A stretch of DNA of 64,000 nucleotides from the IMG/VR virus record IMGVR_UViG_3300031977_002889; one strand, given 5' to 3'. The notes below the pieces were generated by a model, which saw only the letters and a list, made by a program, of their open reading frames with translations, was not told the DNA's origin and did not search any database. The first letter of the stretch is position 1. Each line of letters opens with the position of its first letter. The position numbers were made by a program, and so were the translations under genes. Origin of the DNA: a virus. Positions 22,311-22,496 of this stretch are shown here, piece by piece.

Positions 22311-22496
22311 TGGCCCGCCCTAGAATCACCGCTATGCAGATCATCTTTGATTTCATCCTGCACCGACGGGCAATGCAGGCATAGACTGTTACTCCACACA
22401 TAGATTACCAACAGTCTAATCTCATCTATGTGACCTCAACATTTAGAGGATTTTCTGGGCGGGAGTGGAGGGTTCGAACCTTCTTAAACGCTCCCG
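22311..22496 (-). ncRNA. Candidate structured ncRNA: mini-tRNA plus pseudoknot, CCA-ended
   Basis: Lies between two tRNAs with 6-nt spacers; several perfect stems, a TTCGAAC T-loop, terminal CCA (see findings). Confidence 0.65.

Follow-up and report, generated by a model that had tools for sequence, protein, structure and literature searches.

A probable non-coding RNA gene with a CCA-ended pseudoknot in an accessory tRNA cassette of an uncultured marine T4-like phage

A 186-nt non-coding element lies on the minus strand within the tRNA operon of an uncultured marine T4-like myophage, at 22311-22496 of the window, by which we mean the whole stretch of 64,000 nt that was analysed (IMG/VR record IMGVR_UViG_3300031977_002889). 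The CCA-ended knot at its 3' end recurs in one other phage with compensating mutations, and the element is therefore probably a real RNA gene. The reading that we favour, to which we assign a probability of about 0.5, is that a horizontally exchanged cassette carries a genuine gene for a non-coding RNA, which would be released by tRNA-processing enzymes and whose 3' knot would imitate an acceptor arm; the main rival is a cis-acting role for the neighbouring tRNA-Gly gene. As far as the sequence comparison can tell, the conserved functional core is the 3' ~70 nt.

The element within its tRNA operon

The gp6-type baseplate wedge of the source phage is 41% identical to that of phage C48C1 (Kyanoviridae) and 34-35% identical to those of Methylophilales phage Melnitz and Pelagibacter phage HTVC008M. 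Its tRNA operon, on the minus strand, runs from tRNA-Arg(UCU) (22706-22782) through a 35-codon basic ORF (22580-22687) to tRNA-Pro(UGG) (22503-22579; called by ARAGORN and at 63.9 bits by the Rfam tRNA model), whose encoded CCA ends at 22503, and continues beyond the element with tRNA-Gly(UCC) (22229-22304) and tRNA-Leu(UAA) (22141-22226), which like tRNA-Arg are recognized by ARAGORN and Rfam. A reading of this DNA made earlier from the letters alone (hereafter the sequence-only reading) had described 6-nt spacers to both flanking tRNAs, and these are indeed ATATAA (AUAUAA in RNA; 22502-22497) between tRNA-Pro and the element and AATTAT (22310-22305) between the element and tRNA-Gly, both read on the minus strand.

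Two protein-coding features border these genes. The small ORF upstream of tRNA-Pro encodes a very basic product (MAKGNKKTSIGKRNVKF...KKYRGQG), is preceded by a strong Shine-Dalgarno sequence and abuts tRNA-Pro with its stop codon; it is conserved with two substitutions in a close relative (L001), was left uncalled by gene callers in JGI contigs, and resembles a basic mini-ORF in the tRNA cluster of contig G017 (L112, about 413-545). From the other side, a GT8-like glycosyltransferase ORF (21514-22194, plus strand) converges on the operon, its last ~54 nt overlapping the tRNA-Leu gene; the orthologue in L001 is six codons shorter at its end because tRNA-Leu differs there.

RNA positions within the element are given below as 22497 minus the coordinate. 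All of the stems that had been proposed are present at their stated coordinates, and a stem search recovered 1-6/32-37, 34-40/177-183 (7 bp), 65-73/92-100, 79-87/107-115 and 118-123/135-140. In a nested model, the element as a whole has a minimum free energy of -60.4 kcal/mol (z = -2.24); this fold uses the distal helix 34-40/177-183, and enforcing the 5' minihelix instead costs about 9 kcal/mol in the nested model. The element holds no credible ORF, and promoter and terminator signals within it do not rise above shuffle level. The structured insert that the sequence-only reading saw in the operon is accordingly supported as non-coding, tRNA-derived and heavily structured.

The first 41 nt (22456-22496, minus strand) constitute an armless mini-tRNA built on stem 1-6/32-37. 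They read CGGGAGC/GTTTAA/GAAGG/TTCGAAC/CCTCC/ACTCCCG/C/CCA, exactly as had been claimed, with six of seven acceptor pairs and four of five T-stem pairs. This stub is clearly tRNA-derived: it has a canonical UUCGAAC T loop, and an acceptor stem and NCCA at tRNA spacing with C as the discriminator, while a 6-nt linker replaces the D and anticodon arms. Folded alone, it reaches -11.6 kcal/mol. Membership in the tRNA family (RF00005) was judged by a cloverleaf with D arm and anticodon arm and a score above 29 bits; the stub is called neither by ARAGORN nor by the Rfam tRNA model, both arms are absent, and no RF00005 match appears in 22311-22496 even at E up to 10. Its two mismatches in 12 bp would resemble a decaying pseudogene.

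An A-rich linker and a hairpin, CCUC/GAGG (RNA 48-51/60-63, with an 8-nt loop; 22433-22455, minus strand), lead to what we call knot A (22382-22432, minus strand), the two interleaved perfect 9-bp stems (65-73/92-100 and 79-87/107-115) that the earlier description had pointed out. Among 5000 dinucleotide-preserving shuffles, two stems of at least 9 bp arose twice and an interleaved pair never (0/5000). Folds in which one or the other of the knot A stems is enforced are nearly isoenergetic (-59.4 versus -60.3 kcal/mol), and knot A may thus be either a pseudoknot or a two-state switch, that is, a bistable hairpin pair. The minihelix, the small hairpin, knot A and the 3' knot (knot B) have no bases in common and can therefore all be present at once.

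Known families do not account for the element. At the gathering thresholds of Rfam 15 the four flanking tRNAs alone were found, ARAGORN likewise found tRNAs and nothing else, and cmscan, applied to 22250-22560 with E up to 10, added to the tRNAs no more than one chance snoRNA match. The novelty suggested by the sequence-only reading therefore survives, no family having matched at E up to 10; as far as the models reach, this result excludes tmRNA forms, YrlA/Y RNA, 6S RNA, small ribozymes and riboswitches. Candidate assignments to tmRNA, permuted tRNA, HDV-like, pistol and twister RNAs were also ruled out on layout.

The conserved 3' module and its homologue

The 3' ~80 nt of the element have one homologue, a distant one, in G006, an IMG/VR contig of 152.7 kb that is complete and encodes a gp6 58% identical to that of the window. 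The G006 locus had been retrieved solely for its 241-nt gap between tRNA matches, and it gave the one weak full-length match (14.6 bits, E 0.05 over 82 kb) of R1, a covariance model of RNA positions 31-186. In the alignment of the two 3' regions (A4), 51 of 83 columns are invariant with one 2-nt gap; the invariant blocks are AUCAAA, UCUGCA-N-AGCGGU, U-N-UAGG and CCAAAUU, and the spacing to CCA is identical. When a 49-nt block of G006 was slid ungapped over both strands of the window (~128,000 positions), the best score, 33/49, fell exactly at the element and the next best was 26; over 0.48 Mb of other loci, with one pattern-selected locus set aside, the maximum was 28.

As delimited by A4 and the covariance-model match, the conserved module (22305-22384, minus strand) consists of the hairpins P1 and P2, the pseudoknot helix P3, the CCA and an AAUU(A/U)U trailer. 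P1 is the hairpin CCUGCA/UGCAGG (RNA 118-123/135-140; 22357-22379), whose pairs are conserved with G006 and whose loop holds the 5' strand of P3, GCCCGUC (126-132; 22365-22371). A feature that the sequence-only reading had not contained is the pairing of this loop with GGCGGGC (178-184; 22313-22319), which is supported by the duplex calculation, by covariation and by RNAalifold, and whose last base is the first C of the CCA. The hairpin P2, CUGC-AUA-GCGG (158-168; 22329-22339), has a stem that is invariant in both copies and is likewise returned by RNAalifold. The encoded CCA (22311-22313) forms the 3' end of the element, and the same alignment columns hold CCA in G006. All of these features are on the minus strand.

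G006 has interleaved stems of its own: the loop GGGUGGC of a CUCUAUA/UAUAGAG hairpin pairs with GCCACCC just 5' of the CCA, and the window pairing GCCCGUC/GGCGGGC falls in the same alignment columns. Across P1 (6 pairs), P3 (7) and P2 (4), 17/17 pairs are kept in both copies, seven of them changed on both sides and none broken; the compensatory pairs number 3/6 in P1 and 4/7 in P3. As a control, partners slid by 1-3 columns showed 35-53% pairing and 0-1 compensatory pairs. RNAalifold run on the alignment with no structure supplied returns P3 and P2, together with a short outer extension of P2 that contains one more compensatory pair. The loops of P1 and P3 are 2 nt, 2 nt and about 37 nt long, the last containing P2, and these lengths fit the geometry of a classical H-type pseudoknot; P1 and P3 stack quasi-continuously over 13-14 bp and leave a short CA/CCA tail.

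It had been suggested that the 3' strand of the element competes for a strand of the mini-tRNA. The 7-bp pairing in question exists, between 177-183 and CCCGCCC (34-40; 22457-22463, minus strand), a segment that overlaps the 3' strand and CCA of the mini-tRNA, and by duplex energy this distal helix is slightly stronger here than P3 (-14.9 versus -12.3 kcal/mol). However, no counterpart of the distal helix was found in G006, whereas the P1 and P3 pairs covary, so that the conserved partner of the 3' strand is the P1 loop. Covariation in homologues, to which the sequence-only reading had also looked, is thus seen for P1 and P3, whereas for the mini-tRNA and the 9-bp stems of knot A the evidence is statistical and anatomical rather than comparative. 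Two members of the family are known, and the covariation is accordingly that of one pairwise comparison. The CCA may have arisen as a by-product of P3, which includes its first C.

Searches for further copies covered several collections. By blastn against 50,697 phage records, the window element gave no match at 1e-5 and chance matches only at E 10, and the G006 element gave no match. Exact and degenerate pattern scans found no copy in IMG/VR except G006, which one scan recovered, no match in GTDB genomes, and one chance match, inside a coding region, in a collection of JGI metagenomes that misses some of the JGI contigs carrying the element. R1 and R2, the latter a model of the 3' module, were run over 49 related records and found only G006 (with R2 only), and nothing further in about 300 kb of other loci.

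An accessory cassette with tRNA-Gly(UCC)

The module belongs in both phages to a cassette of a non-decoding tRNA look-alike, a structured RNA and tRNA-Gly(UCC), which is accessory and occupies unrelated sites in the two genomes. In G006, as in the window, the RNA module is preceded by a non-decoding tRNA-like gene and lies upstream of tRNA-Gly(UCC). That tRNA-like gene (L113 246-314, corresponding to G006 98945-99013) scores 45.5 bits with the Rfam tRNA model and leaves ARAGORN silent; it has normal acceptor, D and T arms and is followed by CUCCA rather than CCA, and its anticodon loop has 4 nt, so it cannot decode. The G006 block sits downstream of gp32, a genome site different from that of the window, and 14 contigs with a gp32 about 88% identical to that of G006 carry no tRNA and no module at that position. 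In the nearest relatives of G006 the site of the block is taken by a 334-nt non-coding, visibly structured gap downstream of gp32 (L131 2907-3240; also in L132, L133 and L135), which is unrelated to the module by R2.

On the side of the window, three JGI samples have yielded contigs with the element at 100% identity; the source of the window itself may be among these samples. The phage occurs in JGI samples 3300031841, 3300076585 and 3300076590. The IMG/VR contig L001, with flanking proteins 95-98% identical, has the operon Arg-ORF-Pro-Leu and thus lacks both the element and tRNA-Gly; in sequence, its tRNA-Pro differs considerably from the window gene, as does its tRNA-Leu over the 5' two-thirds. 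A 78%-related phage (L021) has the order Arg-Met-Leu-ORF-Pro, with a tRNA-Pro of the L001 type and no element, and two syntenic relatives (L022 and L024) have no tRNAs. From these sequences, the block comprising tRNA-Pro, the element, tRNA-Gly and the 5' part of tRNA-Leu looks to have been imported into the genotype of the window by recombination through tRNA sequences. Independent assemblies of the window phage in Logan (contigs L007-L011, L018 and L019) break inside tRNA-Leu and tRNA-Arg, which fits a polymorphic (or repeated) tRNA block in those samples. The existence of a 98%-identical relative that lacks the element, and the absence of the G006 counterpart from the nearest relatives of that phage, indicate that the element is dispensable; being missing from the closest relatives of both phages and placed at different genome sites, the cassette is accessory and probably mobile.

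The company of tRNA-Gly(UCC) at two unrelated genome sites is also an argument for the main rival, namely that the element acts in cis for this tRNA and has no role after cleavage; it might offer RNase P or RNase E a platform for folding or processing, cap the upstream transcript at its 3' end, or be an attenuator that sets the amount of tRNA-Gly. A further relative, G008, also has a 195-nt non-coding spacer (L127 358-552, minus strand) before a tRNA-Gly(UCC), here of the G006 type and preceded by tRNA-Leu, and the isoenergetic stems of knot A and the two partners of the 3' strand are what one would find in a switch. However, the distance from module to tRNA-Gly is 6 nt in the window and 66 nt in G006, where it includes an A/T-rich stretch, a terminator-like U run is absent, and the G008 spacer has no detectable homology to the element. 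On balance we consider a purely cis-acting role unlikely, although it is the best placed of the alternatives. Within the G008 spacer are a ...GGCUCUGCCA/AAUUU junction and, immediately 5' of the tRNA, a 7-bp hairpin.

Other tRNA-Gly(UCC) genes were also inspected for neighbours of this kind. An IMG/VR search with the anticodon arm of the window tRNA-Gly yielded 10 contigs, of which 0/10 carry the element. Gaps of 187-257 nt lie beside tRNA-Gly(UCC) genes that share this anticodon arm in otherwise unrelated IMG/VR contigs (L116 11045-11231, L119 559-748 and L115 3876-4132) and could be further non-tRNA RNAs; R1 is silent in them, and the sole match of R2 in these loci (L115 7173-7223, E 1.3) lies outside the gaps.

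The polymorphism of the block also allows the element to be seen as a non-functional relic, in which a decayed tRNA gene and spacer hitch-hike with tRNA-Gly as co-infecting phages exchange tRNA blocks, and the stems are leftovers of tRNAs or palindromic DNA. Consistent with this, the stub has a plain tRNA origin and contains mismatches, near-identical relatives lack the block, the tRNA-Pro and 5' tRNA-Leu that flank the element are of foreign type, and neither the exact-pattern scans nor the two covariance models gave further copies. Against decay stand the compensatory changes, which keep P1 and P3 at 39% divergence without breaking a single pair; interleaved perfect stems of 9 bp are far from chance, and streamlined phage genomes seldom retain 200 nt of junk. 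We therefore regard the relic explanation as doubtful.

Known relatives in kind and possible roles

The closest known analogues are RNAC (species 1, 139 nt) and RNAD (species 2, 119 nt) of the T4 tRNA cluster, whose roles are still described as unknown (PMC3014915, PMC9697503). Like these, the element is a non-tRNA RNA in a T4-type tRNA operon, with short A/U spacers and tRNA-like processing junctions. T4 rnaC keeps a T arm, which in the window element sits in the 5' stub; T4 rnaD ends in GGCGCACCA followed by AAUUAU and the window element in GGCGGGCCA followed by AAUUAU, the CCAAAUUAU junction being common to both. Unlike the T4 RNAs, the element is ordered as a 41-nt stub followed by two knots, and R1 and R2 find no match in the T4 genome (NC_000866), so that there is no sequence or structure homology to rnaC or rnaD. 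When the 3' end and trailer of rnaD, CGGCGCACCAAAUUAU (L004 1548-1565), are set against those of the element, GGGCGGGCCAAAUUAU (22305-22320), 13/16 positions match, which could be a shared processing signal or a coincidence.

Small pseudoknotted RNAs that abut phage tRNA ends have a precedent in the theta ribozymes, minimal HDV-like ribozymes that adjoin tRNAs of gut phages (PMC10879173), and an undescribed self-cleaving ribozyme that matures neighbouring tRNA ends in a theta-like role is a further reading of the element. Its pseudoknotted cores with invariant single strands (AUCAAA, U-UAGG), its invariant small hairpin and the fact that it directly abuts CCA ends would be in keeping with such a ribozyme. 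We nevertheless hold this to be very unlikely, since none of the ribozyme families in Rfam gives a match at E up to 10 and the tRNAs of the window encode CCA, as against only 4.5% of theta-associated tRNAs (PMC10879173). The HDV-like fold, moreover, is defined by the nested double pseudoknot P1-P2-P3/L3-P1.1-P4, in which J4/2 supplies the catalytic C; in manual threading, the place required for the P3/L3 hairpin had room for only 4 nt in knot A and 2 nt in knot B, and the HDV-like or theta layout therefore does not fit.

A reduced or permuted tmRNA, brought to mind by the marine T4-like phage setting, the combination of pseudoknots with a tRNA-like piece bearing T arm and CCA, and the two-piece tmRNA reported for the related Melnitz-like and pelagi-myophages (PMC9004378), is largely refuted and effectively excluded by the marks that define a tmRNA (G3:U70, a reading frame for the tag, and recognition by ARAGORN or by Rfam models RF00023, RF01849-51 and permuted forms), since ARAGORN in standard and permuted modes and all Rfam tmRNA models are silent, the acceptor pair 3:70 is G-C and not the alanine identity pair, the acceptor partner lies upstream and not downstream of the CCA strand, and all frames are full of stops with no tag-like ORF.

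Returning to the reading of a genuine RNA gene released by tRNA enzymes, we infer its processing, stability and binding partner from the layout of the operon and the fold of the module. The cassette would be transcribed together with the tRNA operon, RNase P would cleave at the 5' side of both the mini-tRNA and tRNA-Gly, and trimming would remove the A/U spacers as far as the encoded CCA, so as to release either a single 186-nt RNA or a 41-nt and a 145-nt RNA. In the released RNA, P1 and P3 are predicted to form a classical H-type pseudoknot shaped like the acceptor/T-arm stack of a tRNA, as in the tRNA-like structures of plant viruses; the 3' knot would cap the RNA and resist 3' exonucleases. 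Our speculation is that the knot acts as a mimic or competitor, most likely by binding a protein that recognizes the 3' ends of tRNAs, candidate partners being the CCA-adding enzyme, an RNase, a synthetase or EF-Tu, and a host toxin that acts on acceptor ends.

The acceptor-arm topology of the module is one that we take to resemble the TYMV-type tRNA-like structures of plant viruses. As in those, the 3' strand beside the CCA pairs with a hairpin loop, here with 13/13 P1 and P3 pairs kept and seven of them compensatory; unlike those, the module has no analogues of the T arm or anticodon arm and sits in the operon of a DNA phage, not at the 3' end of a viral RNA. A more specific proposal, which we put forward tentatively and hold to be rather improbable, is that of a mobile acceptor-arm mimic, made up of the CCA-ended pseudoknot and the minihelix stub and traded together with tRNA-Gly(UCC), whose effect would be to titrate, or to lead astray, a host factor that acts on the 3' ends of tRNAs, for example a defence toxin by which acceptor ends are modified or cleaved. 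If this decoy proposal is true, the element would be to bacterial viruses what the tRNA-like structures are to plant viruses, and would represent a new class of anti-defence decoy made of RNA.

That phage tRNA clusters contain non-tRNA RNAs of unexplained purpose has been known for fifty years. The element described here adds a case that has a covariation-backed core, the CCA-terminal H-type pseudoknot, and a clear genetic behaviour, that of an accessory block which travels with tRNA-Gly(UCC) and a non-decoding tRNA look-alike. Should the knot indeed imitate an acceptor arm, it would provide a testable handle on tRNA-end metabolism, on defence evasion or on tRNA maturation, and tRNA-like structures would extend from the RNA viruses of plants to DNA phages.
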